Source of the DNA: a virus
Length of the DNA: 64,000 nt
Direction: 5' to 3' (one strand)
IMG/VR virus record: IMGVR_UViG_3300047476_000704
Location: 130,857-194,856 of that record
The notes below the pieces were generated by a model, which was not told the origin of the DNA, did no database searches, and worked only from the letters and a program-made list of their open reading frames with translations. Below are positions 42,510 through 63,533 of the stretch, piece by piece. How positions within the stretch are numbered: position 1 is the stretch's first letter; each line of letters opens with the position of its first letter. Both the position numbers and the translations under genes were made by a program.

Positions 42510-43425
42510 TTTTAATTGTTAATTCGTTAATAAAAGGTAAAATTGCCAACTCTTTGGCTTTTGCTTCAACCATAACATCTACATCAATGTTGTAGGTATC
42601 GGGTAGATTTGTAATATAATCACTATGTGCTTGTGGTTTTAGTTTTGCATCATTTTCGTGCAATGATTTACTTTCTGAATAGTGCACAACCGGCTTAACA
42701 CCTGATTTATTCCAAGTAGATACAGCAAGAATAAGAGCTTGTTGTTCGGATAAATCGCCTGTACAAAACTGATGGTGATGGTAATCAAATACAATTGGAA
42801 TACCGATACGATTATGAATATACATTAAATCTTTTACAGAGTACATACTAGCTTTATCGTCATTCTCCACAGTCAATCGTTTCTTTACCGAATCCGAGAG
42901 TTTCTCGAAGTTCTCACAGAATCTATCCATAGCAGATTGTTTATCTCCGTAGACACCATTACAATGAATATTAATCTTATTGTATGGAGATAATTCTAAA
43001 CCCATTAAATCAAACACTTTACCATGTAGTTCTAAATCTACAATTGTGTTTTGAACTACTTTTGGGTTTGGTGAAACTAATACATTGAATGGACCTGGGT
43101 GAGATGTAATACGCAAACCATTTTCTTTAGCATAAGTACCACATCCTTTGAGTACATTTGCAATTTTTGTATAATCTGGTAAATCTTCTAAATTATATTC
43201 ACTACCCCAAGGAAATACATCGGATGAAATACGAAATATTTTAATTCCATTCTTTACATTCCATTTGATAATCTCAAATAGGTCACGCGCATTCTGCAAT
43301 CCTAATTCGGAAGCATAAGCAATACCACGTTCGTTAAATGTTTTTTTGACCATACTACGATTGGTAGTAATACGAGGAGTTTGAGCTCCTAATGTCATAT
43401 TGATACAAGCGTAACCTAAATTCAT
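42460..43425 (-). CDS. uvsE: UV DNA damage endonuclease
   Basis: LGYACIN..FRISS..HPGPF..NIH..VEND..DYHHH..HYSE..AHSD..MVEAKAKE. Confidence 0.95.
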   Translation of the reverse strand: MNLGYACINMTLGAQTPRITTNRSMVKKTFNERGIAYASELGLQNARDLFEIIKWNVKNGIKIFRISSDVFPWGSEYNLEDLPDYTKIANVLKGCGTYAKENGLRITSHPGPFNVLVSPNPKVVQNTIVDLELHGKVFDLMGLELSPYNKINIHCNGVYGDKQSAMDRFCENFEKLSDSVKKRLTVENDDKASMYSVKDLMYIHNRIGIPIVFDYHHHQFCTGDLSEQQALILAVSTWNKSGVKPVVHYSESKSLHENDAKLKPQAHSDYITNLPDTYNIDVDVMVEAKAKELAILPFINELTIKNVSTTSDLRAKMLNTI

Positions 43426-43454
43426 ATTTTATAGTTTATAGTTTAACTGAAAAC

Positions 43455-43486
43455 CAAATATACAAATAATTTTTGAGAAATCCTAA
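43455..43486 (-). promoter_or_regulatory. Bacteroidota-type promoter (uvsE and sugar cluster)
   Basis: TTAG-N20-TATATTTG. Confidence 0.65.
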
Positions 43487-43726
43487 TTAAATTTCCCATT
43501 TATTTTCAGGACAAGCTGTTTTTTCTGGTACGAATACTTTTGCTTTTAAAACACAACCGCATTGTCCACATATTTTAATTTTTCCAAAAATATCACCCGA
43601 TTCGGTTATAAAAGGACAAGTATTACAAGTTTCCAAACGCTTGGCTGCAATGGCTGATTGTTCGGTTGTTGGGTCTACCATAACCCTATACGCATTAAAT
43701 ATTTCCTTTATTTTAGATAAGTTCAT
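43487..43726 (-). CDS. small Cys-rich protein (DUF6171-like)
   Basis: RL..C..C..C..CGC...K.....CP..KW. Confidence 0.6.
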   Translation of the reverse strand: MNLSKIKEIFNAYRVMVDPTTEQSAIAAKRLETCNTCPFITESGDIFGKIKICGQCGCVLKAKVFVPEKTACPENKWEI

Positions 43727-43727
43727 A

Positions 43728-44774
43728 TTAATAATTTTTTGATGTAAAGTCTTCGTTTTCTTTTAATTTATCCAATTCTTTTTGATTTCCATTATAAGTA
43801 CGCATCCAATACTTTATAGCATGTCTATCATTAATCCATAATGATTTATTATCCCAATCAAAATCAGGCAAAGTATAATATGGCGCCTTTGGTGTAATTG
43901 AGACGGTTTCTTCTGAAATTGGCACTTCTTCTTCAATTTGAGTTTCTACAACTTCCTCATCTCCGTAAATTTCATAGTTTTTATCAGCTAGGTCGGTAGC
44001 TAGGTCGTTTGATGGTTCTTCAACAATTTTTTTAGGTTTTTTCTTTGCATCTTGCTCTAATGCGGTGTTAAATGCAATCAAAAGCGTTACCGCCATCGGG
44101 TCAAACACAAAAATTAGTAAAAATATGAAGAATTTTACAACTGAATTGATTGGTAAATCAAATGCTTCGGCAATAAATTTAAATCCGCCGATTTCTCTTT
44201 CCAAATCTAGGTTATTATTCTTAATTTCGTTGATTTTTATGTTCCAAACTGCTATTGAGTCATTCAAAACACCAATTTTAGTAGATAATTTGTTAATTTG
44301 CTTATCTCTGTTATCAATTGAACGGATTAATCGGTTATTTACCTTACCACTACCCAATAAAGTACCTGAATTTTGTTGTAGATTACCCATTTGTGAGTTA
44401 AGTTGGGTAATTTGTTGCTCATTTTGAGTAATTTTACTCTGAAATACACCAATTTCTCTAGTAACCACATCACTTTTTAAGGATGTTGATTGATATGCGT
44501 TTGATAAGAACCCAAAAATACCCGCAGATGTGATTATAACCAATATAAGAACACCCAAAAGTAGGTATGTTCTCAATAATTTGTTAGTTTCTTTCCAAAA
44601 TCGGTGCAAATAAGACGCAGCTATAAGTTTAGCAATCTCCAATGATGTTCCCATCACCCCAACTGCTAAACTTGCGCCACTAAATAATAATGCTAAACCT
44701 GTTACTGAAAAGAATGCTGCACATCCGGCAACTGCGAGTGCCGCTAATCCAACTAATAAAGTAAATGGTTTCAT
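43728..44774 (-). CDS. multi-pass membrane protein with coiled coil
   Basis: Three N-terminal TM segments, coiled coil, TM IFVFDPMAV. Confidence 0.65.
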   Translation of the reverse strand: MKPFTLLVGLAALAVAGCAAFFSVTGLALLFSGASLAVGVMGTSLEIAKLIAASYLHRFWKETNKLLRTYLLLGVLILVIITSAGIFGFLSNAYQSTSLKSDVVTREIGVFQSKITQNEQQITQLNSQMGNLQQNSGTLLGSGKVNNRLIRSIDNRDKQINKLSTKIGVLNDSIAVWNIKINEIKNNNLDLEREIGGFKFIAEAFDLPINSVVKFFIFLLIFVFDPMAVTLLIAFNTALEQDAKKKPKKIVEEPSNDLATDLADKNYEIYGDEEVVETQIEEEVPISEETVSITPKAPYYTLPDFDWDNKSLWINDRHAIKYWMRTYNGNQKELDKLKENEDFTSKNY

Positions 44775-44780
44775 TTGTGT

Positions 44781-44972
44781 TTAGTATGGTCCTTCGTTAT
44801 TCTCTAAATCAACTAGCTCTCTAATCTTTTGAGAGGTATAGCCAATTTCTTCAATTAACTTAATTGCATCTGCTTGGGTTGCTTGCGTTTCACCTTTAGC
44901 TATTTTCATTAAGTAATCTTTACGAACGTCCACTCTTGATAATAATTCTCTAACTTGGTCTCTGTATTTCAT
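44781..44972 (-). CDS. hypothetical protein
   Basis: 63-aa ORF behind its own promoter. Confidence 0.55.
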   Translation of the reverse strand: MKYRDQVRELLSRVDVRKDYLMKIAKGETQATQADAIKLIEEIGYTSQKIRELVDLENNEGPY

Positions 44973-45000
44973 AAAACATTTCTTTATTATAAGTATTATA

Positions 45001-45030
45001 AAAAATAAAAGGGTAGAAAATCCACCCTCT
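45001..45030 (-). terminator. intrinsic terminator after hsp20
   Basis: AGGGTGGA-TTT-TCTACCCT followed by TTTATTTTT. Confidence 0.7.
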
Positions 45031-45035
45031 TATTA

Positions 45036-45067
45036 CAAATATACGAAACAAATTTTACTTTAACAAC
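45036..45067 (-). promoter_or_regulatory. Bacteroidota-type promoter
   Basis: GTTG-N20-TATATTTG. Confidence 0.6.
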
Positions 45068-45438
45068 TTTATTGGTAGTTTTTTTGCTAATGTATCCTCT
45101 TTCTTTGGAATAACGATTAAAAGGATACCATTTTTGATTGAGCACTCTGCCTTTTCTAAATCGTAATCTTTGTTGATTGTAATTGTATCATCAATTTCTT
45201 TGATTAAATTGGATTGGATACTCTCAACATCTTCTTTTTTAGCCTTTACCTTTAAAACATTGTTGTTGGCTTCTACTGTAACATCTTGTTGTCCATATCC
45301 CAGCACAGAATAGGCAATTTCTAATTGTACATCATCTTTTGATTGATATACCGCGTTGTGTGATAAACGAACTACCGAAGATTTTTCGGTTGTTGGTGTG
45401 TTTTGTAATCTACTCATTTCTTGTAATAATTCAAACAT
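45055..45438 (-). CDS. small heat-shock protein (Hsp20/alpha-crystallin)
   Basis: G...DVTVEANNNVLKV..A...KNGILLIVIPK. Confidence 0.85.
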   Translation of the reverse strand: MFELLQEMSRLQNTPTTEKSSVVRLSHNAVYQSKDDVQLEIAYSVLGYGQQDVTVEANNNVLKVKAKKEDVESIQSNLIKEIDDTITINKDYDLEKAECSIKNGILLIVIPKKEDTLAKKLPIKLLK

Positions 45439-45485
45439 AGTATTTTTATTTTTAGGTTAAACAATTAAATTATACCAACATAATA

Positions 45486-45525
45486 TCAATTGTTGTACCA
45501 ATTATAAAACCCTGACAATTTGTCA
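45486..45525 (-). promoter_or_regulatory. sigma54-like element plus TGACA-N3-TGTCA palindrome upstream of hsp20
   Basis: TGGTAC-N5-TTGA at 45500-45486; palindrome at 45513-45525. Confidence 0.4.
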
Positions 45526-45528
45526 TAA

Positions 45529-46173
45529 TTATTCATTAGTTTGTGACTCAATTACAGTGCTCATGTGGTCAGCCCAATGCATAATGTAAGGAATTTTATA
45601 TTTCATTCGCTTGGTAGTATCAAATACTTTCAAATACTTAACATTATCTTCGTCATACATACCATCTGTAAGTTTCATCCCAAAGTATTCAGCTTCTGAA
45701 ACTTCAATACCATATTGTTGTAATAAAAACATAGTTCTATCCGTATGAGTCATATGAGATAACTCTGGATTAGGGATATAAACTTTACCTTGATTCTTTA
45801 CATGCCATTCGGATTGATTTACAACATAGTATGGTTTTCCTTTTGTACCCAATTTACCCAAGTCGTGATGTAATGCACAAAAGATTAGTTCTTCATCGGT
45901 AAAGTCAGTGTCACCACCCATAGATACAAATAGTTCCTTTACTTTTAAAGCATTCTTACATACATTAAAAATATGGTCAATGTATCCACCTTCATAGCAA
46001 TTATGGTATCCCTTATTTCCGCTTGCAGGTGAAAGAGCTAAACTAATTCCCAATTCTTCTTCGGAATACATTCGTAATAGTTTTTCTAATCTATCACCAG
46101 TAAAATATTTGTTGATGATACCAATAAATCTTTCGTAATTTTTTTGTAATTGCTCGTCTGTGTATTTTTTCAT
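45529..46173 (-). CDS. HD-domain phosphohydrolase (YhaM-like)
   Basis: HNCYEGG..DH..HHDLGK..H..DG..HWAD. Confidence 0.8.
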   Translation of the reverse strand: MKKYTDEQLQKNYERFIGIINKYFTGDRLEKLLRMYSEEELGISLALSPASGNKGYHNCYEGGYIDHIFNVCKNALKVKELFVSMGGDTDFTDEELIFCALHHDLGKLGTKGKPYYVVNQSEWHVKNQGKVYIPNPELSHMTHTDRTMFLLQQYGIEVSEAEYFGMKLTDGMYDEDNVKYLKVFDTTKRMKYKIPYIMHWADHMSTVIESQTNE

Positions 46174-46175
46174 AA

Positions 46176-46502
46176 CTATTTTTTCTTTTGTACTAAATCT
46201 TCTTGTGTAATTATCTTATAAAGTAACTCTACATCTTCTTCGGTTTCCAACAAAGGTAGTTCGCCATAATCAAATACGGAAATTTTATATTCACCTTTTT
46301 TTACACCAATAATGTTACATTCATCGGATGCAGTTGATAATAGAGCTGGTCTAGCACTCATATCTCCTTCCCAATTATTGGGTAATGGCAAAATATAGTA
46401 GTGATAAACTTCACCAGTTTCCTCACTTTCTTCTTCGTGTTTGATAGCATTCCATTTTTTAAAGGAAGCATCTGTAATAGGTGTTTTTGGAAATGTTAGC
46501 AT
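46176..46502 (-). CDS. hypothetical protein
   Basis: 108-aa ORF behind promoter at 46531-46562. Confidence 0.6.
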   Translation of the reverse strand: MLTFPKTPITDASFKKWNAIKHEEESEETGEVYHYYILPLPNNWEGDMSARPALLSTASDECNIIGVKKGEYKISVFDYGELPLLETEEDVELLYKIITQEDLVQKKK

Positions 46503-46530
46503 GAAATAATTGACATCTTTAATTTGAACT

Positions 46531-46562
46531 CAAAGTTACAAAATTTTGAGCACATTGTCAAA
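46531..46562 (-). promoter_or_regulatory. Bacteroidota-type promoter
   Basis: TTTG-N20-TAACTTTG. Confidence 0.75.
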
Positions 46563-46575
46563 TAATTTCAGACAT

Positions 46576-46989
46576 TTATTTTTGAGTTGTTACCAATGTA
46601 GGTTCAGTTTGTTTTTTAGCTCTTTTTCTTTTTGGTTTTACAGCTATTAACTCTTTAACTTTAAGGTCAGCAATAAGGTCTCTGATTTCAGCGCATATTT
46701 CATACTCTTCCGTTTTTTCATAGTATTTAATTATTTGAGCTAAAAACAAAGTATAATCCTTTGATTTGATAGTTGCATAGATTTTTGTTTCTTGAAATCG
46801 TAGGATAGCAACCTCATCCAGCTTATGTTCAAGTGAATACTTTATAGTATCGTAAAGATGTGGGAATATAGTATCTTTATTATCGGAAATATATTTCTTA
46901 ACGGATTCCGAAGCATCCTCTCCAAAATAATCTTTCCAGTCAACTTTAGCGTACATATCCGTAATTTTTAATAACTTTCGTACATCCAT
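46576..46989 (-). CDS. hypothetical protein with UVR-like segment
   Basis: EEYEICAEIRDLI. Confidence 0.55.
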   Translation of the reverse strand: MDVRKLLKITDMYAKVDWKDYFGEDASESVKKYISDNKDTIFPHLYDTIKYSLEHKLDEVAILRFQETKIYATIKSKDYTLFLAQIIKYYEKTEEYEICAEIRDLIADLKVKELIAVKPKRKRAKKQTEPTLVTTQK

Positions 46990-47017
46990 ATTCTTTCAAT
47001 AAATATAAAGCGTTTGA

Positions 47018-48613
47018 TTAAAACTTTAAGAAATCTGAATTTGCGGATTTTAAAGTATCTACTGTTTGGGTTGCTGCGTTTTTAATCATATTTAATCCTT
47101 CACCTATACTAACATTTCCTATTGTTGAAATTGTTGATTTACCAAATTCTGCTACATTACTTACTTTATTAGATATACCTTTTGCCTGTGATGCTAATGA
47201 TACAACATTTGATTGTGCTTGCGATGCTAATGATGTAGCTTTATTAGCTATATTTTTTGCTTGTGATTGGGCTTGTGATGCCAAAGTTGTAACTTTTCCA
47301 ATTGCGTTTTGCGCATTATTGGCAGCATCTTGAACTTTATCCAAAGCGTTTCCAGCTGAATCTATTGTTTCACCTAATGCTTTCAGTTTAATAAGATTTC
47401 TTTTTGGTATAACAATCGCTTTAGCTGGATTTTTTATTTCAATTTTTGGTATTACTGGCTTTTTAAATATACTAATTACATTACTAACGGCTCCGGTTGC
47501 AGTATCCTTTGCATTAGATAATCCACCTTGAATACCTGCAGAAAGTGCCGCAGCTCCGGCTTGTGCTTGGGCTTGCGCATTTGCACCGGCAATAAGTGCC
47601 ATATTTTTAAATTCTTCGGCTTGCTTTAATGCTTTTTGTGCTTTTAATTGTGCAACTTTATCTACACCAGCACTAATACCACCTACTAAAGCCGCTCCTG
47701 CGGCTAATCCACCAGTAAACGATGATAATCCAGCCAAATTTCTACTTACACCATTTATTAAATTCGTATCTACCCCAAGTCCATCAATAATTTTACCTAC
47801 CGATTGTAATAAATTTGTATTTGGTGCGCCTTTTGTATCGGATGTTATATTTTTTGAATAAACTGAATTTACTTCTTGTAAACTTTTACCTGCGAAATCT
47901 TTTATAAAATCATTTAATTGGCTAACTGCACCAAATGTATTAGATTCTAATGATATGTTTGATGTACTATTTAATAAACCTTCCTTAAATTTACCAGCCG
48001 AATCAAAATATTCTGTTTCATATAAATAAGACCCTTTGATTCTACTACTGGAGTAATTCCGCGCGTTTACAATATTTTCGGTAACTAATTCTACATTTTT
48101 TTCTACAAATATAACCTCATCTTGCTCATCAAATAAAAATAAAATTTGTTTTATTATTGACTCATCATCCGGTTGTCCCGATTCCTTAAACCCAGCGTAA
48201 TTGGTAATTGATGTTACGCCAGCATCTTCCAATTTAGATAAAATAGCAGAACCTTTTGGTTTTTCAAATTTATCTTTTAAATATTTTATTAAAGAGCTAC
48301 CGGTACTTGTAAAATCTAATTTAATTACAGTAATTTGGTCAATTGTATAATATGGATTATTTTCATTATATGCGATTTGTAAATCCTTATAGATGTGTTG
48401 TGGTATATATATATTTTGAGGAAAATCTCCACCAACTATTTGAATACCAAAGTTTACATTTTTTTTTGGAGATACAAACACTTTATAATTGAGTTGTGCA
48501 TCCGGATTTTTTGTTGGTAATACAATATTGTTTACTTCAAAATCACCCTGCAACTCAATACTTTCTCTATCTCCTGGAAGATAAAACCCATATGTGTTTG
48601 TTACATTCTTCAC
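47018..48613 (-). CDS. hypothetical protein with Ala/Gln-rich amphipathic repeats (GTG start)
   Basis: SLASQAQS-type repeats in the C-terminal third. Confidence 0.6.
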   Translation of the reverse strand: MKNVTNTYGFYLPGDRESIELQGDFEVNNIVLPTKNPDAQLNYKVFVSPKKNVNFGIQIVGGDFPQNIYIPQHIYKDLQIAYNENNPYYTIDQITVIKLDFTSTGSSLIKYLKDKFEKPKGSAILSKLEDAGVTSITNYAGFKESGQPDDESIIKQILFLFDEQDEVIFVEKNVELVTENIVNARNYSSSRIKGSYLYETEYFDSAGKFKEGLLNSTSNISLESNTFGAVSQLNDFIKDFAGKSLQEVNSVYSKNITSDTKGAPNTNLLQSVGKIIDGLGVDTNLINGVSRNLAGLSSFTGGLAAGAALVGGISAGVDKVAQLKAQKALKQAEEFKNMALIAGANAQAQAQAGAAALSAGIQGGLSNAKDTATGAVSNVISIFKKPVIPKIEIKNPAKAIVIPKRNLIKLKALGETIDSAGNALDKVQDAANNAQNAIGKVTTLASQAQSQAKNIANKATSLASQAQSNVVSLASQAKGISNKVSNVAEFGKSTISTIGNVSIGEGLNMIKNAATQTVDTLKSANSDFLKF

Positions 48614-48615
48614 TA

Positions 48616-48750
48616 TTATCTACCTTGTCCTCTATACTTCTTTGGTTTTTCTTCGTATTTACCATACGATTTCTTTGCCTTACCTTTACCTCTCTTACCG
48701 AAAGTTACTTTTTTGTTGCTAGAACCAACACTTACTTTAGCTTTTGCCAT
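48616..48750 (-). CDS. 44-aa very basic protein ending KKYRGQGR (not in track)
   Basis: MAKAKVSVGSSNKKVTFGKRGKGKAKKSYGKYEEKPKKYRGQGR; late motif at 48778. Confidence 0.7.
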   Translation of the reverse strand: MAKAKVSVGSSNKKVTFGKRGKGKAKKSYGKYEEKPKKYRGQGR

Positions 48751-48795
48751 AGTCTTAATTATTATAGGTTTATTTCCTATAAATATCGCAGACAC

Positions 48796-48829
48796 AAAAA
48801 AAGTAGTAGATAAAATCCACTACTTTTTT
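48796..48829 (-). terminator. intrinsic (possibly bidirectional) terminator
   Basis: GTAGTGGA/TCTACTAC stem flanked by A- and T-runs. Confidence 0.7.
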
Positions 48830-48960
48830 ATAATCGAGTTAAACATAAAATCTTTTGTACGGGAGGTTGGTGGGGGTTCGGCTTTGTTTCTTTGGGAGTA
48901 ACTATGGACCAAATTGTTGTCCCCACCAACATCGTACTTTATCGTAACCTTAATTTGTAT
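48796..48960 (-). ncRNA. candidate small RNA between promoter and terminator
   Basis: Perfect 10-bp inverted repeat 48866-75/48921-30; only a 34-codon ORF. Confidence 0.35.
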
Positions 48961-48964
48961 AGTT

Positions 48965-48995
48965 CAAAGATACGAAATATTTTCCAACAATCAAA
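48965..48995 (-). promoter_or_regulatory. Bacteroidota-type promoter (no long ORF downstream)
   Basis: TTTG-N19-TATCTTTG. Confidence 0.7.
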
Positions 48996-49138
48996 ATGTT
49001 TTAAGGTTTTTTTTAAAATTGTACTATATAAAGAACCTTTTTTAACTTATTGGGAAAATCCTATTTTTTTGATGTTTTTAGTATTTTTCTAATATTTATA
49101 TACAAATAATTATATTTAAATAGATAAAATACAAAACA

Positions 49139-49276
49139 ATGCAATTACTTTTAATTCTTACTTTATGTGCTAGTTTAGTTAGCGGTATATTAGTTAAATT
49201 CAATACGGATTCTAAACCAGCTAAACATCGTTCTCACTTAAAAAATTTGGATACGAATAAATTGTGGCCTAACTAA
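49139..49276 (+). CDS. 45-aa membrane-anchored peptide; only plausible + strand CDS
   Basis: MQLLLILTLCASLVSGILVKF...; A-rich leader; late motif in + orientation at 49093-49100. Confidence 0.55.
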   Translation: MQLLLILTLCASLVSGILVKFNTDSKPAKHRSHLKNLDTNKLWPN

Positions 49277-49437
49277 AAGAAAAAAGCCACAAATAAAATT
49301 ATTCCACCCAACCAAGCAGTTTCTCTACGGAATTGAGAAGTTCTGAAAAAGAATAAACCATTCTCTTCCAAACTATACATTAGGTTTATAGCCCAATATA
49401 CGATAAGAAATCCAATAGCGGTACTTACATTTATCAT
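49273..49437 (-). CDS. 54-aa two-TM membrane protein
   Basis: Manual translation MINVSTAIGFLIVYWAINL...; overlaps the upstream stop. Confidence 0.5.
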   Translation of the reverse strand: MINVSTAIGFLIVYWAINLMYSLEENGLFFFRTSQFRRETAWLGGIILFVAFFF

Positions 49438-49541
49438 TTCTTAAGTCCGTTTAATTTCTTTTTATCTGCTCGTAATTGCTTTGCAATATATTTTACCCAT
49501 TGATTATAGGTTAATCCAAATTCGTTTCTTTGTACTGCCAT
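49434..49541 (-). CDS. 35-aa hypothetical protein
   Basis: MAVQRNEFGLTYNQWVKYIAKQLR...; coupled to both neighbours. Confidence 0.5.
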   Translation of the reverse strand: MAVQRNEFGLTYNQWVKYIAKQLRADKKKLNGLKK

Positions 49542-49786
49542 TATTTTATGTATTGAGATAGTAAACGATATGAGTATTGTAACATATACTCTTGAAAATC
49601 TTTTTGGTTTGTAAAATCAACCGATTCAGTTTTTATATAATCAGTACAGAAGGAAGCCAGTTGTTCCGGCTCCTCATCTATATCTGACCTTAAGTCCATT
49701 ATCGCCTCTTTATATCCAGTTTGATAACCGGAATCGTAAAGCTCAAGCAAATCAGAGACTTGTGTGGTTGAGTTTTGTAAATTCAT
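49541..49786 (-). CDS. hypothetical protein (start moved to MNLQN)
   Basis: Track ORF trimmed to limit overlap with KTSC gene. Confidence 0.5.
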   Translation of the reverse strand: MNLQNSTTQVSDLLELYDSGYQTGYKEAIMDLRSDIDEEPEQLASFCTDYIKTESVDFTNQKDFQEYMLQYSYRLLSQYIK

Positions 49787-52371: not shown

Positions 52372-52812
52372 TTAATCGAAAAATTCTACAATAATTCCAG
52401 CTTCTTTAAACATTTGATTTGAGCGTTCTGCCGATTCTTGCCACTTTGGGCTCATAGCACCTTTACCACTTCGTAGTACAATCTTCTTTACACCTGCTGA
52501 TATAATTGCTCTTGCACAATCTGCACAACTAATACCACAAGTCATATACATAGTAGTACCTAATGTAGATACACCTATACGAGCTGCGTTGTAAATACAA
52601 TTCCGTTCCGCGTGTTCAAACCAAAAGTATTTCTCTGGCTTTTCTTGTCTTTCTACAACATCATCGTTGATACCACGAGGAAATGAGTTATAGCCGGTAG
52701 ATACAATCTCATTGTTCTCACCAACTAATACAACACCAATTTTTGTATTATTATCTTTTGATTTCAACTTCACCTGTTCGGCAATGTTGATAAAATATTC
52801 ATCCCAATTCAT
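52372..52812 (-). CDS. dCMP deaminase
   Basis: GYNSFPRG, HAERN, SCADC. Confidence 0.92.
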   Translation of the reverse strand: MNWDEYFINIAEQVKLKSKDNNTKIGVVLVGENNEIVSTGYNSFPRGINDDVVERQEKPEKYFWFEHAERNCIYNAARIGVSTLGTTMYMTCGISCADCARAIISAGVKKIVLRSGKGAMSPKWQESAERSNQMFKEAGIIVEFFD

Positions 52813-53186
52813 TATCCTATAACTTCTCTTATGTAACTTCTTATAAATAAATAAAGTAATTCGTATTGTTTGATTACTACTAATGGTATTACAGTATCTT
52901 TGTCAATAGTGGCTAATGGTGTTCCACCTTCCCATAGAGTAGTGTGCAATCTACAAATATCAGTATCCTTACCTCTCTCATCTATCCAGTTTTGGATTTT
53001 TCGTTCTAATATAAAATAACCTGAATATTTTGTACCTTTTACATTATTCGTATAACTAAATGAAAATGAATATTTTTCATCAGCCGTTGCCATTGCATCT
53101 ATACTAAACTCAAACAACTCACTATTACTACCTTGTTGTTTTTTACCGATTAGTAAATCTATATTTTCTATGTTTATCTTCTTCAT
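52812..53186 (-). CDS. hypothetical protein, possibly a distant MLTIxN-family member
   Basis: MKKINIEN..L.G..Y.F..ILER pattern. Confidence 0.5.
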   Translation of the reverse strand: MKKINIENIDLLIGKKQQGSNSELFEFSIDAMATADEKYSFSFSYTNNVKGTKYSGYFILERKIQNWIDERGKDTDICRLHTTLWEGGTPLATIDKDTVIPLVVIKQYELLYLFIRSYIREVIG

Positions 53187-56703: not shown

Positions 56704-57081
56704 TTAAAACGGAAGTGGTCCAAGTCCAAAACGAGGATGATTCACTACATACTGATTGATAATTTGACCTAACCGCATCATAAGATTGTTTGGTGGTTTC
56801 CTTAACCAATTCAAAGTACAAAAGTGTTCATATACTGCAGTTCCATTTTCAAAATCAATAAACACTATCTTATAGACTTTTTCTTTATCTGCACTCACTT
56901 CCATTTCCACATTTCTATGTAATCTAATTATTACAAATTTATTATCAGCATCATACCTGCTACCCATTTTAAATTCGTAATACTCTTCGGTTGGTTTGTA
57001 CATCAACAACGTCCAACCATCAAAGGTATTTAGGATTCTATAATCCTTTAATCTTTCTTCAAAGTTTTGTATTGTTAGCAT
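56704..57081 (-). CDS. MLTIxN-family paralogue
   Basis: Starts ATGCTAACAAT; MLTIQNF. Confidence 0.75.
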   Translation of the reverse strand: MLTIQNFEERLKDYRILNTFDGWTLLMYKPTEEYYEFKMGSRYDADNKFVIIRLHRNVEMEVSADKEKVYKIVFIDFENGTAVYEHFCTLNWLRKPPNNLMMRLGQIINQYVVNHPRFGLGPLPF

Positions 57082-57338
57082 TATAGTAATTGGATTTCGG
57101 TTATCAATTGTGTTACACCTTCTTCAGTTAAGAACCCAATCACATCATCAGTAATTGGTGTATCGTATGTAATCTCACCTTCGGTATTCAATACTGCCAA
57201 CTCATACAACCCATCCTTACCTCCGTATGAATATTTATGACATATCACACTTACACCAAATCCGTTCTCAAACATAGTACGAGAGTATATACCTCCTCCA
57301 AAAACTTCCTTAAATTCTAAATCTTTAAATTCTTTCAT
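57081..57338 (-). CDS. conserved hypothetical phage protein
   Basis: FENGFGVSVI..YSYGG..GLYELAVL. Confidence 0.7.
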   Translation of the reverse strand: MKEFKDLEFKEVFGGGIYSRTMFENGFGVSVICHKYSYGGKDGLYELAVLNTEGEITYDTPITDDVIGFLTEEGVTQLITEIQLL

Positions 57339-57351
57339 ATCTTTATTTTAA

Positions 57352-57380
57352 ATTATAACCCAACACCTCCGGTCGGTCAA
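57352..57380 (-). promoter_or_regulatory. sigma70-consensus-like promoter
   Basis: TTGACC-N17-TATAAT. Confidence 0.35.
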
Positions 57381-57396
57381 AGGAATTTTTGATAGT

Positions 57397-57738
57397 TTAT
57401 TTATTCTTTAATTCAAAATCAAAAGCATCTACTACGGATTGGATAAATGAATCTTTATCCTTTAATCCATTAGCGGTTATCCCACCTTCATTAAACTTCT
57501 TTCCATTCAACCATAGTTCGAATCTATATTGTTTCTTATACTCATTATTATACTCTCTCGTCAATAGCAACTTACCCCTATTCGTACCCAAAGCGGATAC
57601 AAATGAAATTAAGTAACACTTTGGTTCCATGATATTCAAATCCGAATCGTATTTATACATCTCATCGTATAGTGAATCAATACTCCACCCATTACAATAT
57701 GTACCTTCTAATAATCTAAAGTTATGGATTGTTAGCAT
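57397..57738 (-). CDS. MLTIxN-family paralogue
   Basis: MLTIHNF. Confidence 0.75.
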   Translation of the reverse strand: MLTIHNFRLLEGTYCNGWSIDSLYDEMYKYDSDLNIMEPKCYLISFVSALGTNRGKLLLTREYNNEYKKQYRFELWLNGKKFNEGGITANGLKDKDSFIQSVVDAFDFELKNK

Positions 57739-58051
57739 GTGATATAATTCTTCTTAATGTTCTTAACATAGATGTTACACTTCCTATATTTGCTTCGGTT
57801 ACCCAAACTGAATTGAATGGTTCAAATGTATCCGTAATCTTATAATATTTTGCACTTAACATTGCATCAAGCCCTTCTTCTTCTTTTAGGATGAATACTC
57901 TATCATCTGCAGTAGCGGATGTTCTTAAATGGATTTGATAATCACCTTCAGGTCCATAAGTATGAACTCCTACAACTGTCCATATAGTAGTTGGGTTTGG
58001 AACTATAAATTGCTCCCCAACCAACTTATCTGTATTTTGGATTTTTAGCAT
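57722..58051 (-). CDS. MLTIxN-family paralogue (start moved to MLKIQN)
   Basis: ATGCTAAAAAT at 58051. Confidence 0.75.
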   Translation of the reverse strand: MLKIQNTDKLVGEQFIVPNPTTIWTVVGVHTYGPEGDYQIHLRTSATADDRVFILKEEEGLDAMLSAKYYKITDTFEPFNSVWVTEANIGSVTSMLRTLRRIISHANNP

Positions 58052-58380
58052 ATGTTTATCCTTACCAAATAATGTGAACCAATCCAATTTACTAAATCTT
58101 TTGGGTCTTTTAGATATTGTTTGTGAATTTTATTTAATCCTCTACTTGCATAAGGTCCTTCGAAAAAGGAATCCGTTAAATACTCAAACCCATTATCTTC
58201 TACTTGTCTAAACACCTTTACAAAATGAGCTTGATGTATAGAAAACACACCATCTATTTGGGGTAAAAATGCTATCTCATACCAATTCTCACTTTCCTCA
58301 ATCGTAGCTACCTTCCACCTCTGCCCCATACAACTTATATTGGCATTCGTTATTTTATCGTAATTCTCTATCGTTAGCAT
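58045..58380 (-). CDS. MLTIxN-family paralogue
   Basis: MLTIENY. Confidence 0.75.
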   Translation of the reverse strand: MLTIENYDKITNANISCMGQRWKVATIEESENWYEIAFLPQIDGVFSIHQAHFVKVFRQVEDNGFEYLTDSFFEGPYASRGLNKIHKQYLKDPKDLVNWIGSHYLVRINIC

Positions 58381-58709
58381 ATCCTTTGTAATTTATGTAT
58401 TAATTCGGTTACCTGTGATGCTAGGAGGTAGGGCATTTGCAAATCATCTATATCAACCATCATTTTTACCCTAGTTGCATATCCTATTATAAACAACTTA
58501 TACTTTCCTTGCGCATTGGGTGTTCTATCTAAACAAACCGCAACATCATCTCCATTTAACTTATATGCGTTTTGAACTCTGGTATTAAAATCACTTACTC
58601 TAAAATAAAATACATACCCTAATTGGTTTGGAGTCATATCAACTTTGTGTGCAAATTTACCATTACACAACATCATTTTAAACTTATCCGTATTATGTAT
58701 TGTTAGCAT
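58374..58709 (-). CDS. MLTIxN-family paralogue
   Basis: MLTIHNT. Confidence 0.75.
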   Translation of the reverse strand: MLTIHNTDKFKMMLCNGKFAHKVDMTPNQLGYVFYFRVSDFNTRVQNAYKLNGDDVAVCLDRTPNAQGKYKLFIIGYATRVKMMVDIDDLQMPYLLASQVTELIHKLQRIC

Positions 58710-58710
58710 A

Positions 58711-59094
58711 TTACATATGTTTTACTATTTTATCTGTCATCCAAGTATAGAACCCAATTCTATCCTTTAGGTTAGCAAGACCCACAGTACCTGCGTAAAT
58801 CAAACCTTCACTTTGGACAAGTGACCAATCCAATCCTTTGTGTTTCTCGTCGTAAATCTCAAAGTTATATATGGTTGGTTTATTGAACAATGGATTTCTT
58901 TCTAAAAAACATTTGAATCGGCGAGGTTCATCATTATAATTCCAATAGAATGAATAACTATCACAATCACGAGAAGAACCATTACCTACACCACCATCCT
59001 TATTGCACAAACCAGCATCTACCAATTTGAATGAACCTATTTGGATTCCGGTCTCGTCGTGGGCACCTCTCCTTGGGTTTTGAATTGTTAGCAT
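58711..59094 (-). CDS. MLTIxN-family paralogue
   Basis: MLTIQNP. Confidence 0.75.
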   Translation of the reverse strand: MLTIQNPRRGAHDETGIQIGSFKLVDAGLCNKDGGVGNGSSRDCDSYSFYWNYNDEPRRFKCFLERNPLFNKPTIYNFEIYDEKHKGLDWSLVQSEGLIYAGTVGLANLKDRIGFYTWMTDKIVKHM

Positions 59095-59097
59095 GGG

Positions 59098-59388
59098 TTA
59101 TAATGTAAAATTATCCAATGATTTTAGTAGGTTGTCCATATCCTTAATCCAACTTGCGGTTACACCAATGTGAGTTAGTCTACCATCCGCTCTTTTGAAC
59201 AAATAAATGTTCTCACCATTCCTTACCTTTGCAGGGGTTCGTTGTAGGTAAACCGTTGTGGATATGTGTGATGATGATTCAACCAATTTAATCTCATAGT
59301 GTTTATCGGTTTCATCGCAAAAAGAAACCTCCCAACCCTTTCCTACGGATTTACCACATAACTTATAATAGTGTTTTATTGTTAGCAT
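59098..59388 (-). CDS. MLTIxN-family paralogue
   Basis: MLTIKHY. Confidence 0.75.
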   Translation of the reverse strand: MLTIKHYYKLCGKSVGKGWEVSFCDETDKHYEIKLVESSSHISTTVYLQRTPAKVRNGENIYLFKRADGRLTHIGVTASWIKDMDNLLKSLDNFTL

Positions 59389-59394
59389 ATCTTA

Positions 59395-59724
59395 TTAAAA
59401 TTCAAAGTAATTGTTCCATAAACGAGTCTGAATACTAATCCACATATTGAATCGTTTGAAATCTAAAAAGTGAGTTGGTCCAAACTTTTCAGCTGGGAAT
59501 TTGGTGTGGAAGTTTATCCCATCACCACTCCTTGCTATGTTAAGTGTGTAGGTTTCCCGTTTCCAATCAAACTCTACTAATATTACATTACGGCATGGAA
59601 GTTGGGGGTATATCCACATATGGTTGGGGTCACCCATACTATCTCCCAATCGGAATGGTATCCCATCCGATGATTCAAAGCTATGTCCTTTAATCTTTTC
59701 AGCAAAATTTTGTGGTGCGTTCAT
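59395..59724 (-). CDS. hypothetical protein heading the array operon (MNAPQNF, possibly a divergent member)
   Basis: First ATG after promoter 59751-59782. Confidence 0.6.
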   Translation of the reverse strand: MNAPQNFAEKIKGHSFESSDGIPFRLGDSMGDPNHMWIYPQLPCRNVILVEFDWKRETYTLNIARSGDGINFHTKFPAEKFGPTHFLDFKRFNMWISIQTRLWNNYFEF

Positions 59725-59750: not shown

Positions 59751-59782
59751 CAAAGGTAAGAAGAATACTTGATAATGTCAAG
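59751..59782 (-). promoter_or_regulatory. Bacteroidota-type early promoter (array operon)
   Basis: AAAGA-CTTG-N20-TACCTTTG. Confidence 0.8.
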
Positions 59783-59801
59783 TCTTTGGTTAAATATTTT
59801 T

Positions 59802-60164
59802 TTAATCAATACCAAGAAGATTTCGCATATTATCCGATGAAGTGCGGTATGGGTGTTTCAATTCTTTATGGAGTTTTGCAATACGTCTATGTGCAGAAGA
59901 GAACCGAATTACCCGACCAACATCTGAAACATGATACTTATTCAAAAACGAAGGAAATGAAGTTGAGATATATGGCATATTACCAATGTAAATTATCTCC
60001 GTATCAAGTGAGTTTAATTCACATCCCTTCGGAATGTTTTTATCCAATGCTTCATTTAATAGTTTATTTGGAATAATCCGACCATAAACCAAATGGCTTA
60101 CTATCTCAACCACTATGAATATAAATGGTAAAATAATACAAAGTTTTAATATTAAATCGTTCAT
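59802..60164 (-). CDS. membrane-anchored hypothetical protein (start moved to MNDLI)
   Basis: N-terminal TM. Confidence 0.55.
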   Translation of the reverse strand: MNDLILKLCIILPFIFIVVEIVSHLVYGRIIPNKLLNEALDKNIPKGCELNSLDTEIIYIGNMPYISTSFPSFLNKYHVSDVGRVIRFSSAHRRIAKLHKELKHPYRTSSDNMRNLLGID

Positions 60165-60183
60165 AATTTTATTTGTTTTAAGT

Positions 60184-60597
60184 TTACCAACCACTATGAG
60201 TTCCACCATAGTTTTGTTGTTTAGCTATTTCTATAAGTTTGTCTATACAAGCATTCTCTGCTTCTTCGTAGGTGTCATAATCACAATCTCCACCACCCAA
60301 ATCTGTATTATTTATAACAAATTTTTGTTTCTTAATATGAAGAATATCATAACCATAAAATATGTGGTTAATTTTACCAGACCATATATTAGGTAATAAA
60401 CTATACTTCTCCCTAAACCATCTAAATACTTGTTGTTTAAGTGGTGCTAACATCTCATCTATGCCCTGAACGTGTTTATCTTCAATAATACCTCCAATTC
60501 GTAGATGTGAATTAGTAAACCACCCAAAACAGCTTTCATCAAAACCTAATTTCTTTAAGGCTAATGCTTGTTCGTATGTTACAAATTCTTTATCCAT
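60184..60597 (-). CDS. conserved hypothetical phage protein
   Basis: MDKEFVTYEQALALKKLGFDE..APLKQQVFRWFREKY..TYEEAE. Confidence 0.7.
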   Translation of the reverse strand: MDKEFVTYEQALALKKLGFDESCFGWFTNSHLRIGGIIEDKHVQGIDEMLAPLKQQVFRWFREKYSLLPNIWSGKINHIFYGYDILHIKKQKFVINNTDLGGGDCDYDTYEEAENACIDKLIEIAKQQNYGGTHSGW

Positions 60598-60835
60598 TGT
60601 CTTTGCCATAATTTTCGTTGTAATATCTTTCTGGTGAATCTTCGTTTACTTCATTCCAATGTTGGTGATGTGAGCCTATCTCATAAGCCTCAATTATCTG
60701 CTTTTTCTCCATTTGTTTGGCTTGTTCAATATGAACTAATAATGATGGGTAATCGTCACCAAAATCGGCGCCATTATATACCATATTTTTTATCATATCT
60801 TCCAACCATTCAACACTTGTTTGTTTATTTGCCAT
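60590..60835 (-). CDS. conserved hypothetical phage protein
   Basis: KQTSVEWL..IEQAKQMEKKQI..YYNENY. Confidence 0.7.
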   Translation of the reverse strand: MANKQTSVEWLEDMIKNMVYNGADFGDDYPSLLVHIEQAKQMEKKQIIEAYEIGSHHQHWNEVNEDSPERYYNENYGKDNG

Positions 60836-60839
60836 ATCC

Positions 60840-60968
60840 TTACCAAATTATAGTGAAAGTGTACGATAGCCAACCAAAATCAATCTCTCTTTTCTTACCA
60901 TCCCCACTTATAGAGAATGCTAATAGGGGTAATATCAAATAAGTTCTATTCTGCTTTTTCATATCCAT
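60840..60968 (-). CDS. 42-aa hypothetical protein
   Basis: Manual translation; fills gap between two ORFs. Confidence 0.45.
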   Translation of the reverse strand: MDMKKQNRTYLILPLLAFSISGDGKKREIDFGWLSYTFTIIW

Positions 60969-60969
60969 T

Positions 60970-61200
60970 TTAGTTTTCGTTAAGTTCAATTTCGTAGAAG
61001 TGTTCTAGCAAACCATCGCAGTAACAAACCTCCAAATTATAGGCGGGTAACTCTACATTGTAGTACCCGTCGTTAAAATCAGTTAGGGTAACATCCAACC
61101 AAGTAACATCAATTTTGTTCTTATCGCACCAAGCATCGAAACCAACGGCATCGTTACTTAAAGCAGCATTGTGAATAGCGGTGATAGTAATAGGATTCAT
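60970..61200 (-). CDS. hypothetical protein (start MNPIT)
   Basis: ORF track, trimmed. Confidence 0.55.
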   Translation of the reverse strand: MNPITITAIHNAALSNDAVGFDAWCDKNKIDVTWLDVTLTDFNDGYYNVELPAYNLEVCYCDGLLEHFYEIELNEN

Positions 61201-61220
61201 AATATTAAGGGATTTAAAGG

Positions 61221-61460
61221 TTAATAAAAATAAGCATTCCAAATACGGTCAATAGGGGCGAGGTAACGAGTACCTACTTTCTCTTCGTTAAGAGAACCAC
61301 CTTGCGTCATAGATTCATATTGTGATTTAACAACCTCCATCAAACACTCATTTGGATTCTCCAACACTAATAATAACTTTGCTCTTAAAGTTGGGGAAAA
61401 GTTCTCCGAAACGGGAGTACCAATCATTTTGTTCAACATATAAACTTTATCAATATTCAT
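61221..61460 (-). CDS. hypothetical protein (start MNIDK)
   Basis: First ATG after promoter 61498-61529. Confidence 0.55.
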   Translation of the reverse strand: MNIDKVYMLNKMIGTPVSENFSPTLRAKLLLVLENPNECLMEVVKSQYESMTQGGSLNEEKVGTRYLAPIDRIWNAYFY

Positions 61461-61497
61461 ATAAAAGGGGTTTATGTTTAACTCTCTCAATGTTTAG

Positions 61498-61529
61498 TAA
61501 AGGTAAGTAAAAGGAAGCAAAATGTCAAG
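61498..61529 (-). promoter_or_regulatory. Bacteroidota-type early promoter
   Basis: AAAGA-CTTG-N20-TACCTTTA. Confidence 0.75.
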
Positions 61530-61557
61530 TCTTTACCTAATTATTTTTAAATTATTT

Positions 61558-61788
61558 TTAATCAGCAAACCCATACCCATGTCGTAAAGAGTAATCTCGC
61601 CGTTCCTTCAAAACCCTCTTTTGTTCAACCAACTCATCTATCATCTTATCCCAATGGGTTTTGGGAGCATGTATTGTTCCTCTTTCCGATAGCCAATATA
61701 AACCCTTATTAGGATTAGGTTGTCTTCGTAGGTGGGCAATAGTAGCGTTAATCTCATCACACCTTTTCAAATACTCTTTTGTAGTCAT
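61558..61788 (-). CDS. hypothetical protein
   Basis: 76-aa ORF. Confidence 0.55.
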   Translation of the reverse strand: MTTKEYLKRCDEINATIAHLRRQPNPNKGLYWLSERGTIHAPKTHWDKMIDELVEQKRVLKERRDYSLRHGYGFAD

Positions 61789-61793
61789 ATCTC

Positions 61794-62168
61794 TTATAAG
61801 TTAGTAATAAAATAATCTTTAAGTTTTTCCATTGCCCGAACCTTAATCTGCCTAACCCTCTCACGAGTTAATAACAACTCCCTACCTATCTCATCGTAGT
61901 TCATCTCCTCACCATTAGGTAATCCAAAGGATAGCTCAATCACACATCTCTCACGAGGAGTAAGAACCCACTCCATAGCCGAACTCAATTCAATACCCAT
62001 ATCCTCAATCTCTAAACCTCTAAATTCTGATGATTGGGAAGGGAAGGATTCAACCTCCTCCAAACCAACATACTCATACTCTAAATCTCTATGATTAGAT
62101 GGGATGTGGATAACTCCATTTTCAATCTCTTTGTTAATCCGATAAGTGTCTTGTGAGTAACGATTCAT
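61794..62168 (-). CDS. sigma-70 region-4-only HTH protein (start moved past promoter)
   Basis: LTPRERCVIELSFGL..EMNYDEIGRELLLTRERVRQIKVRAMEKLK. Confidence 0.85.
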   Translation of the reverse strand: MNRYSQDTYRINKEIENGVIHIPSNHRDLEYEYVGLEEVESFPSQSSEFRGLEIEDMGIELSSAMEWVLTPRERCVIELSFGLPNGEEMNYDEIGRELLLTRERVRQIKVRAMEKLKDYFITNL

Positions 62169-62200
62169 ATCTATTTTGTTTATGTCTAACTGATGTTCTA

Positions 62201-62232
62201 TAAAGGTAGGCATAATATACCACAATGTCAAG
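62201..62232 (-). promoter_or_regulatory. Bacteroidota-type early promoter (sigma4 protein)
   Basis: AAAGA-CTTG-N20-TACCTTTA. Confidence 0.75.
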
Positions 62233-62386
62233 TCTTTTACCAAATTTATTTTTGTTTTCCTGGTTATTTTATAGACCATATAGAAACCCTTAAAAGTGTA
62301 TAGGGTAAAGAGGGTTTAGGATAGCAAAATGAAATTTAGGATGACCACCTAAAATATACCCTTTGGGGTATAATTGTATATTAAAA

Positions 62387-62541
62387 CGAGTCAGGCCCGA
62401 AAACATGGCACCCGTATGAAAGCGTACCCGACTCGGGGGTCCAAGCATGCCTTCGGGCGTGTTACGGGAAATGGAGAGTCTCCATAACGGGGGCAACGCC
62501 TCCGCACGAGCCTACGCTCGGGTAGTTAGATAGTTATCTAA
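62387..62541 (+). ncRNA. candidate structured non-coding RNA (or structured DNA element)
   Basis: About 62% GC by hand count over 62387-62520; six or more stems, a cUUCGg loop, G-U pairs in the + sense, and pseudoknot potential. Confidence 0.5.
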
Positions 62542-62544
62542 TCG

Positions 62545-62775
62545 TTATACGGATTGACGAACGGGTCGTTGGTATTGCTTTAAAGCTTGGGTGACCTCAT
62601 ACTGATGTTGTCTAGCGGAGCGTAGTGTTATCTCGCATTGCTCAGCCAATCCGATGTTCTTCGATGACACCGCTTGTAGGTACATCACAGTGATGTCTTC
62701 TATATCGGTTTGTAGTGCCTGTAGTCTACGCTGGAAGAAGTTCACATCATGTTGGTATTCGGTTAGTGTACTCAT
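62545..62775 (-). CDS. helical hypothetical protein
   Basis: 76-aa ORF. Confidence 0.55.
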   Translation of the reverse strand: MSTLTEYQHDVNFFQRRLQALQTDIEDITVMYLQAVSSKNIGLAEQCEITLRSARQHQYEVTQALKQYQRPVRQSV

Positions 62776-62835
62776 AGTGTATAGGGGTTGAATTTTGTTT
62801 TGCTAAAATAATTTTACCATTGCGGTCCGCAGATG

Positions 62836-63147
62836 CTATTCCTCACAGACAGTAAACTCAATAGCGGGCCCAAAGGTGATACCACCACTCACACCTGCCC
62901 AACTATAACCGGGTTCTAATATCTCTCTTACTTTCTCTCTATCAATGGAGTCGAATTGTATATCATACGGATGTGGTTGAGTCAGATACTCACCAATAGC
63001 AGCCTCAATTTGGTCTGTTGAAGCGATACGATATATACCATAATACTCATTGTAGAACTCATTACAGTAGTGATTGAACTGCTTTAAATCTTCGAAGAAA
63101 GAACGGCGTTTAACCATAGGAATAGGGGCTTCAAATAGATTGCTCAT
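62836..63147 (-). CDS. hypothetical protein (start MSNLF)
   Basis: CNEFYNEYYGIY..IQFDSIDREKVR. Confidence 0.6.
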   Translation of the reverse strand: MSNLFEAPIPMVKRRSFFEDLKQFNHYCNEFYNEYYGIYRIASTDQIEAAIGEYLTQPHPYDIQFDSIDREKVREILEPGYSWAGVSGGITFGPAIEFTVCEE

Positions 63148-63290
63148 AGGAATGGGGTTATAAGGGTTTAAAACTAATTTCGGTTTTAGGTAAGTGTCTA
63201 ACAGAGATAGCCAACACACGCAGGCGGCATGGGTGGCCAGTAGCCATTAGGAACACAATCAATAAGATTAACTTCTCTCTCATCATATAT

Positions 63291-63322
63291 CAAAGGTACG
63301 CAGAATATGTGAGAATGTCAAG
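63291..63322 (-). promoter_or_regulatory. Bacteroidota-type early promoter
   Basis: AAAGA-CTTG-N20-TACCTTTG. Confidence 0.8.
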
Positions 63323-63383
63323 TCTTTGCTCAATTATTTTTATATTATCCCAAAAAAATTTTAGGGTATAGGGGTATAATACG

Positions 63384-63459: not shown

Positions 63460-63533
63460 TGGGTGTAAGGACGGTATCGAACCGTCTTCTCTGGCTCCAC
63501 AAACCAGCGCTTCACCTTAAAGCTTCAAACACC
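63460..63533 (-). tRNA. trnH: tRNA-His (GUG)
   Basis: G-1 GTGTTTG/CTTACAC C73; D-stem GCTT/AAGC; anticodon stem CTGGT/GCCAG, loop TT-GTG-GA; T-arm GACGG-TTCGATA-CCGTC; two U-U pairs in the acceptor stem. Confidence 0.88.

Follow-up and report, generated by a model that had tools for sequence, protein, structure and literature searches.

A tandem array of divergent MLTIxN genes in an uncultured phage: one protein family, one predicted fold and a gene start conserved as DNA

The stretch of viral DNA analyzed here, referred to below as the window, is 64,000 nucleotides (nts) long and covers positions 130,857 to 194,856 of IMG/VR record IMGVR_UViG_3300047476_000704. It forms the final 64 kb of this phage record, which totals 194,856 bp and is rated complete by CheckV. 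The genome has a GC content of ~32%, carries every open reading frame (ORF) of at least 330 amino acids (aa) on its minus strand, and contains 25 tRNA genes, a tmRNA-like gene and several large collagen-like tail fiber genes. Between positions 56704 and 59724 of the window lies an operon of small genes, seven of which (m1 to m7) form a tandem array encoding proteins that begin with variants of the hexapeptide MLTIxN. The operon and its associated features are listed below in window coordinates; "body" denotes the score of a protein in the profile test described further on, and pLDDT and pTM are the predicted local distance difference test and predicted template modeling score of AlphaFold models.

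59751–59787, minus strand: promoter-like site AAAGACTTGACAT-N-TACCTTTG, upstream of the operon
59395–59724, minus strand: first operon gene, starting MNAPQNF, assigned to a separate "MKAPxNF" family
59098–59388, minus strand: m1, 96 aa, MLTIKH; body 48.6 bits; pLDDT 95.1, pTM 0.84
58711–59094, minus strand: m2, 127 aa, MLTIQN; most divergent body, with loop insertions; body 8.7 bits; pLDDT 82.3
58374–58709, minus strand: m3, 111 aa, MLTIHN; its stop is the TAA within the ATGCTAA of m4; body 22.0 bits
58045–58380, minus strand: m4, 111 aa, MLTIEN; its stop is the TAA within the ATGCTAA of m5; body 24.0 bits
57722–58051 (from the ATG), minus strand: m5, 109 aa, MLKIQN; 17-nt overlap with m6; body 20.2 bits
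57397–57738, minus strand: m6, 113 aa, MLTIHN; body 33.5 bits
57081–57338, minus strand: acidic 85-aa gene, profile match to phrog_4074 (E 9e-17), unrelated to MLTIxN
56704–57081, minus strand: m7, 125 aa, MLTIQN; last member; body 39.0 bits
52812–53186, minus strand: ORF starting MKKINIEN, a two-residue extension; probable distant MLTIxN member

These are the same seven ORFs, with identical starts, that a first-pass annotation had picked out from the letters and their translations. Elsewhere in the 194,856-bp genome, an MLTIxN-type start is seen in no ORF of useful length, and a family profile run against this genome returns only the seven array members and, weakly, 52812–53186. The shared start is not a matter of chance, since all seven genes begin with ATGCTAA though CTA accounts for 11% of the genome's Leu codons. 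The phrog_4074 gene interrupts the array, and it does so at a constant position within the array in all four related phages compared below.

The first-pass annotation described the seven proteins as barely alignable yet sharing a loose layout, and both halves of this description proved apt. Pairwise BLAST among the seven is almost blank past the N-terminus, and a small leave-one-out profile picked up only m1, m6 and an m7 orthologue. The body test used a profile built from 129 diverse members, with residues 1–12 cut from every sequence and the query's close relatives excluded, and was controlled by 1000 shuffles, the best of which reached at most 10.3 bits. Without their first 12 residues, six of the seven bodies score between 20.2 and 48.6 bits, and that of m2 is borderline, ranking second of ~1000 in the shuffle test. 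The test shows that MLTIxN members have homologous bodies and share sequence beyond the first six residues. The layout itself is visible as conserved columns in the 129-sequence alignment: M1, L2, I4, N6, Y31, R50 and Y62 are conserved in at least 94% of sequences, and T3, K9, W19 and L48 in 74–80%.

A single fold, expanded and diversified, had been proposed for the array, a proposal that unrelated predicted structures would have contradicted. AlphaFold models were made for two of the seven members, m1 and m2. The m1 model consists of a coil (residues 1–6), a one-turn helix (7–10), seven strands (14–16, 19–26, 30–37, 43–49, 54–56, 59–66 and 71–77) and two C-terminal helices (78–81 and 84–92). 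The m2 model has the same order of elements with longer loops, and the two models have 22 of their 50 top neighbors in common among 48,161 PDB chains; the folds are therefore not unrelated, and these models, together with the body profiles and the differences in copy number and order among related phages, support the proposal. As modeled here, the family adopts one α+β domain: the N-terminal MLTIxN, a one-turn helix, a 6–7-stranded antiparallel sheet and two C-terminal helices. Within the strands, conserved positions alternate with positions of near-maximal entropy (3.5–4.0 bits in the 129-sequence alignment), so that the sheet would have one conserved and one hypervariable face. Residues W19, V21, Y31, I33, L48, R50 and Y62 are the conserved ones in the strands and are assigned to one face, and insertions in the alignment lie in loops. 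Searches with both models by Foldseek (PDB and BFVD) and VIA-align (the 48,161 chains) gave background-level matches only, and the ESM Atlas yielded nothing but unnamed viral clusters, all below 0.85. The top BFVD match, from Tenacibaculum phage pT24, was set aside, as the family profile finds no member in the 234,670-bp record of that phage.

Several observations suggest that MLTIxN is the first structural element of this domain rather than a removable tag. Its conservation pattern is that of a buried strand, with L2 and I4 alternating; position 6 holds Asn and now and then Gly, as is typical of tight turns; the first ten residues of m1 are modeled at a pLDDT of 94; and the motif survives when it is internal, as in MKLTIKN-like starts, behind long helical N-terminal extensions, and behind zinc-ribbon leaders fused in frame ahead of different members. 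These leaders are ~39 aa long, have four cysteines (CxxC...CxxC) and precede different MLTIxN subtypes, for example at L006:4110–4565, in P0012 and P0145, and in ~155-aa ORFs at 11 IMG/VR loci (e.g., L065:6661–7113). At L006 the leader's own start, MPTIHN, differs from MLTIHN by one base, suggesting a chimera formed at a cassette junction.

The family extends far beyond this genome. With clustering at 50% identity, an exhaustive profile search of 1.84 billion proteins recovered 349 clusters with E ≤ 1e-3, 29 of them with E ≤ 1e-10; almost all are full-length matches of 91–130 aa starting MLTI[KQE]N..K[LI].G. Member ORFs number 227 in 44 IMG/VR stretches. A profile-based count of copies in related genomes, which the first-pass annotation had put forward as a check, gives 33, 21, 17, 18 and 12 matches in five further phage records, the highest count belonging to a 101-kb fragment judged 40% complete. 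The first-pass annotation did not recognize the family, and rightly so, as it is missing from Pfam-A, PHROGs v4 and the sequences of the PDB. The seven members have no Pfam match, and the 129 relatives share none at E ≤ 0.01, with only two unrelated single-member chance matches. Neither set matches PHROGs v4 at E ≤ 1e-3, and a profile search of PDB sequences reaches a best E of 0.9. Among GenBank phages, tblastn of three members against 50,697 records gave no credible match, and blastn of the array region gave none. The DNA start motif occurs 109 times in 185,579 prokaryote genomes; none of these matches encodes a member, and they therefore provide no lead to a prophage or host. At the sensitivity used, the family appears to be virus-only. 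MLTIxN is thus a large multigene family, phage-only and undescribed, whose members are small soluble proteins of ~90–130 aa. Two apparent leads were discarded along the way. The m4 orthologue P0116 is named "DsrC/TusE sulfur relay" in one source, a name left unsupported by the lack of any Pfam match to m4, and the five partial profile matches in P0174 are spurious, this 1876-aa protein being a secreted one with PKD repeats.

How the array changes over short evolutionary distances can be seen by comparing the window with the closest relatives, labeled L006, L056 and L051. Genes were grouped by body similarity: A stands for MKAPxNF, E for phrog_4074 and K for a GIY-YIG-like ORF, and the remaining letters are MLTIxN subtypes. 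The cassette orders are:

Window: A B C H G I D E F
L006: A C D E F
L056: A C B C G K B D E F
L051: A A A B C B B C G H D E F J

Related phages thus differ in how many copies they carry and in how the genes are ordered. L006 has 3 copies, L051 has 10, and L056 has 9, of which 8 form the array and one lies 5 kb upstream of it. The edges of the array are fixed and its middle is duplicated, lost and reordered, and every copy is intact. Breaks in synteny coincide with gene junctions. The gene downstream of m2, for instance, can be m3, an m1-type gene or a zinc-ribbon fusion, and the junction sequence is unchanged. Array orthologues diverge much faster than neighboring genes: they are 33–59% identical among the related phages, while the flanking ligase, kinase, small protein, dCMP deaminase and phosphoesterase are 72–99% identical in the two closest relatives. 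A close cultured relative was not found, the array-adjacent RNA ligase being at most 37% identical to that of any GenBank phage. Arrays lie far from structural genes, among small accessory ORFs and homing-endonuclease genes. In L056, a GIY-YIG-like ORF (L056:7391–7867) sits inside the array and an HNH-like ORF (L056:1485–1934) has as neighbors an isolated family member and a gene of the MKRINIEN type; in 9 loci, small GIY-YIG-like ORFs occur near arrays.

Conservation of the MLTIxN start reaches the level of nucleotides. Across 28 copies from the four related phages, the second codon is CTA in 26 and TTG in two, with no TTA at all, and Leu at position 10 is mostly TTA. Among 164 distinct IMG/VR members, the favored codons are CTA (119 of 150), ACA (115 of 125) and ATA (146 of 164), and CTA makes up 13% of the other Leu codons in the same genes; this set was fished with a pattern containing the start motif, and once the ~57 seeding matches are removed about two thirds still use CTA. 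The favored start codons all avoid U. Predicted mRNA accessibility is 0.589 with CTA versus 0.561 with TTA, a small gain, and is better still with CTC. A tRNA-Leu(UAG), the reader of CTA, is present in the tRNA cluster, which comprises the 25 tRNA genes and the tmRNA-like gene and lies outside the window at genome positions ~41,650–49,670.

The junctions between members are exceedingly tight. Of 186 junctions between consecutive members, 136 fall within −20 to +25 nt, with a 1-nt gap at 48 and the upstream stop placed inside ATGCTAA at 29; in the window's own operon, six of eight borders leave 0–6 nts or overlap. With no intergenic space available, any start signal must sit inside the coding sequence. 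In Bacteroidota, translation begins without Shine-Dalgarno pairing and relies on start regions that are A-rich and unstructured (PMC6847099). An in-gene start signal is a reasonable but unproven explanation of the CTA preference and the conserved start, and homogenization by recombination at the junction is another.

One strong early promoter had been assigned to the array. It corresponds to a strong consensus match at 59751–59787, upstream of the first operon gene and the array, in which the TAnnTTTG -7 element is of Bacteroidota type; that the operon would be early and strongly expressed is a reading of sequence and position. The late-promoter word of T4, TATAAATA, shows no enrichment on the coding strand (19 vs. 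47). GACTTGACA occurs in 6 copies in the genome, always on the minus (coding) strand, 4 of them in the window at 59784–63324. A promoter-like unit that consists of AAAGACTTGACATT-N14-TACCTTT, with a common leader after it (..GTTAAACATAAA..), is conserved on the minus strand at window positions 63324, 62234, 61531 and 59784 and at genome positions 118814 and 20574, so that four of the six units crowd into the last 4.5 kb of the record. This promoter-rich end also holds a lone tRNA-His (window 63461–63532). The only real gap in the array, 58 nts between m6 and the phrog_4074 gene, contains a match to TTGACC-17-TATAAT (11 of 12) and a short GC hairpin (57352–57380, minus strand).

Two further ORFs had been suggested as possible members, and they fared differently. 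The ORF at 52812–53186 is a probable distant member: hhalign aligns its N-terminal half with the family at 75% probability (E 2.5e-5), and weaker tests agree, in that the own-genome profile reaches E 1e-3, its body ranks first against 1000 shuffles, and its L006 orthologue reaches E 2.3e-5. For 59395–59724, hhalign gives 8.8% and the leave-out body test shows no signal. This gene belongs instead to a separate tandem family, MKAPxNF, that flanks the arrays, with orthologues at the 5′ array edge in L051 (8675–9658, three tandem copies), L056 (5650–5997) and L006 (3404–3736). The MKAPxNF start (MKAPxNF..K..G) resembles MLTIQNF..K..G, but comparing profiles gives no link between the two families.

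What, then, might such an array be for? Given a conserved core with a hypervariable exposed face, rapid divergence, flux in copy number, and a location among accessory and homing-endonuclease genes, a repertoire of binders acting inside the infected cell is the best-supported reading. In its full form, to which we attach about even confidence, the array of this phage-only, one-fold family would be a single-transcript, shuffled repertoire of host-binding proteins serving host takeover or anti-defense; a host-targeting or anti-defense role as such is plausible. A strong promoter of host type, close to where the phage's single transcription direction begins, would yield one transcript spanning the whole array, and ribosomes would pass from each gene to the next, most junctions having a 1-nt gap or a 7-nt overlap. 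Each copy would bind a different host protein through its variable sheet face and loops, and the array would in this way amount to a host-takeover or anti-defense repertoire that recombination at cassette borders could grow, shrink and reshuffle. A uniform DNA mimic is argued against by the spread of isoelectric points, which run from 5.4 to 9.5 (10th to 90th percentile of the family).

A number of points weigh against a repertoire of host binders. In the searches made, no member has a known function, partner or homologue; no conserved partner gene or enzyme accompanies the arrays across distant phages; and fused or longer members carry no known second domain that would point to an activity. 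The fold models cover only two of the seven members, the burial of L2 and I4 is deduced from conservation patterns and pLDDT rather than from coordinates, and the timing of expression is deduced only from promoter sequence and position. Furthermore, selection on amino acids alone does not explain the nucleotide-level conservation of the start.

This last point leads directly to a reading in which the conservation mainly concerns nucleic acid: AUGCUAACAAUA, the 12-nt start, would be a translation (re)initiation element for genes without space between them, an operator for a shared regulator or a recombination joint, and the MLTI peptide largely a by-product. The codon bias at positions 2–4 of the genes, set against TTA at position 10 and the far lower share of CTA elsewhere, speaks for it, as do the avoidance of U, the lack of room for upstream signals at most junctions, the SD-independent, A-rich starts of Bacteroidota, and synteny breaks that fall exactly at junctions. 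Yet the residues themselves are retained through synonymous changes (Thr as ACA, ACG, ACT or ACC; Ile as ATA, ATT or ATC; Asn as AAC or AAT; Leu also as TTG or TTA), position 6 accepts only Asn or Gly, the motif persists internally after extensions, and the gain in accessibility of CTA over TTA is small where CTC would surpass both. Together these features indicate that the peptide constraint is real and that peptide and nucleic-acid levels are probably superimposed; a mainly nucleic-acid origin of the conservation is accordingly improbable. A more elaborate proposal, doubtful though less so, makes AUGCUAACAAUA a dual-purpose joint, at once a signal for (re)initiation without a Shine-Dalgarno sequence and a microhomology for the duplication, loss and exchange of cassettes between co-infecting phages; the arrays would then be an integron-like cassette analogue that shuffles the host-binder repertoire.

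Two other alternatives concern the proteins rather than the DNA. One of them, the most interesting of the rivals owing to a matching protease in the genome, treats MLTIxN as a sorting signal like the capsid targeting sequence of phage T4. Such a signal would direct the proteins into the prohead, where the protease might trim them, and they would enter the cell together with the DNA to block host defenses. The T4-type prohead protease in question (Peptidase_S77, PF03420, 92.4 bits) is encoded at genome positions 126221–126664, and T4 internal proteins likewise are small, diverse and variable from one related phage to another, with an N-terminus in common. Unlike those proteins, MLTIxN members have homologous bodies and one fold, into which residues 1–10 are modeled. 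Positions 1–12 read M-L-T-I-x-N-x-x-K-L-x-G, with a 7–12 consensus of Y-x-K-L-x-G, and contain no conserved (L/I)-x-E cleavage motif or Glu; the motif tolerates N-terminal extensions and fusions and tags no other protein of the genome. The sole upstream promoter is of the host-like class that clusters at the start of the transcription direction. A sorting signal is thus very improbable. Little probability likewise attaches to the idea that the proteins serve the phage itself, as specialized chaperones or adaptors (e.g., for collagen-like fibers) or as immunity-like partners of phage toxins. The phage does encode several large collagen-like tail fiber proteins, and the intactness of all copies in related phages would fit such a service. 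Structural matches, however, stay at background level, the arrays are distant from structural genes, charge is not uniformly acidic as in secretion chaperones, and the 12–33 matches per record and 3–10 copies in close relatives vary without matching variation in an identified client family.

If the array is indeed a repertoire of host binders, a single small scaffold is maintained in as many as 33 or more divergent versions by uncultured phages of ~100–270 kb, and would constitute a ready-made library of natural binders against host proteins or defense systems and a source of new anti-defense proteins. Promoter type and the absence of Shine-Dalgarno sites point to Bacteroidota as the probable hosts of the array-bearing phages. 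The family is currently invisible to annotation, being absent from Pfam, PHROGs, the PDB and cultured-phage genomes, and defining it would put a name to hundreds of "hypothetical proteins" in freshwater and other metagenomes. The strict DNA conservation of the first four codons offers a testable case of how genes start, and modules shuffle, without intergenic space or Shine-Dalgarno pairing. New here are the family-wide definition, the fold model and the quantified junction.

Tandem arrays holding tens of very divergent, intact copies of one small virus-only protein that lacks known relatives and has a presumed role in host interaction are familiar from the lineage-specific multigene families of poxviruses and African swine fever virus. 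Those families are unrelated to MLTIxN, in which the conserved element is N-terminal and is also conserved as DNA. In terms of fold, both models retrieve RWD domains and class I type III secretion chaperones as neighbors, at background Z only. Like the predicted MLTIxN domain, these are small α+β sandwiches in which an antiparallel sheet is packed by terminal helices, and they bind other proteins via the sheet.

The internal proteins IPI, IPII and IPIII of T-even phages resemble MLTIxN in being small, highly diverse, conserved at the N-terminus and variable between related phages, and at least IPI* is an anti-restriction protein (PMC3012670). In T4, however, the mature parts are unrelated and only the leader is shared, whereas MLTIxN bodies are homologous and the N-terminus is part of the predicted fold; the T4 leader comprises ~10 residues ending in a prohead-protease site (L/I-x-Glu), whereas MLTIxN lacks such a site and has a host-like promoter upstream. 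For the border motif, the nearest known parallel is the modular shuffling mediated by PeSLs, intergenic units of a sigma-70-like early promoter plus a stem-loop terminator that are situated between unrelated genes in the hyperplastic regions of T4-type phages (PMC2839356, PMC4122927). Like the arrays, PeSL regions contain non-essential small genes with no assigned function, undergo insertion, deletion and replacement between close relatives, and bear a short conserved DNA motif at module borders. In the array, this motif is the first 12 nts of one family's coding sequence, usually with no intergenic DNA, and recombination at it is deduced from synteny breaks only. The array is not built of intergenic units in the PeSL sense, given the tight or overlapping borders of the window and of most other junctions, and a single promoter-like site with a hairpin, in the gap between m6 and the phrog_4074 gene. 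What the two systems do share is the behavior of their modules: content and order differ between close relatives, with breakpoints at a conserved motif.

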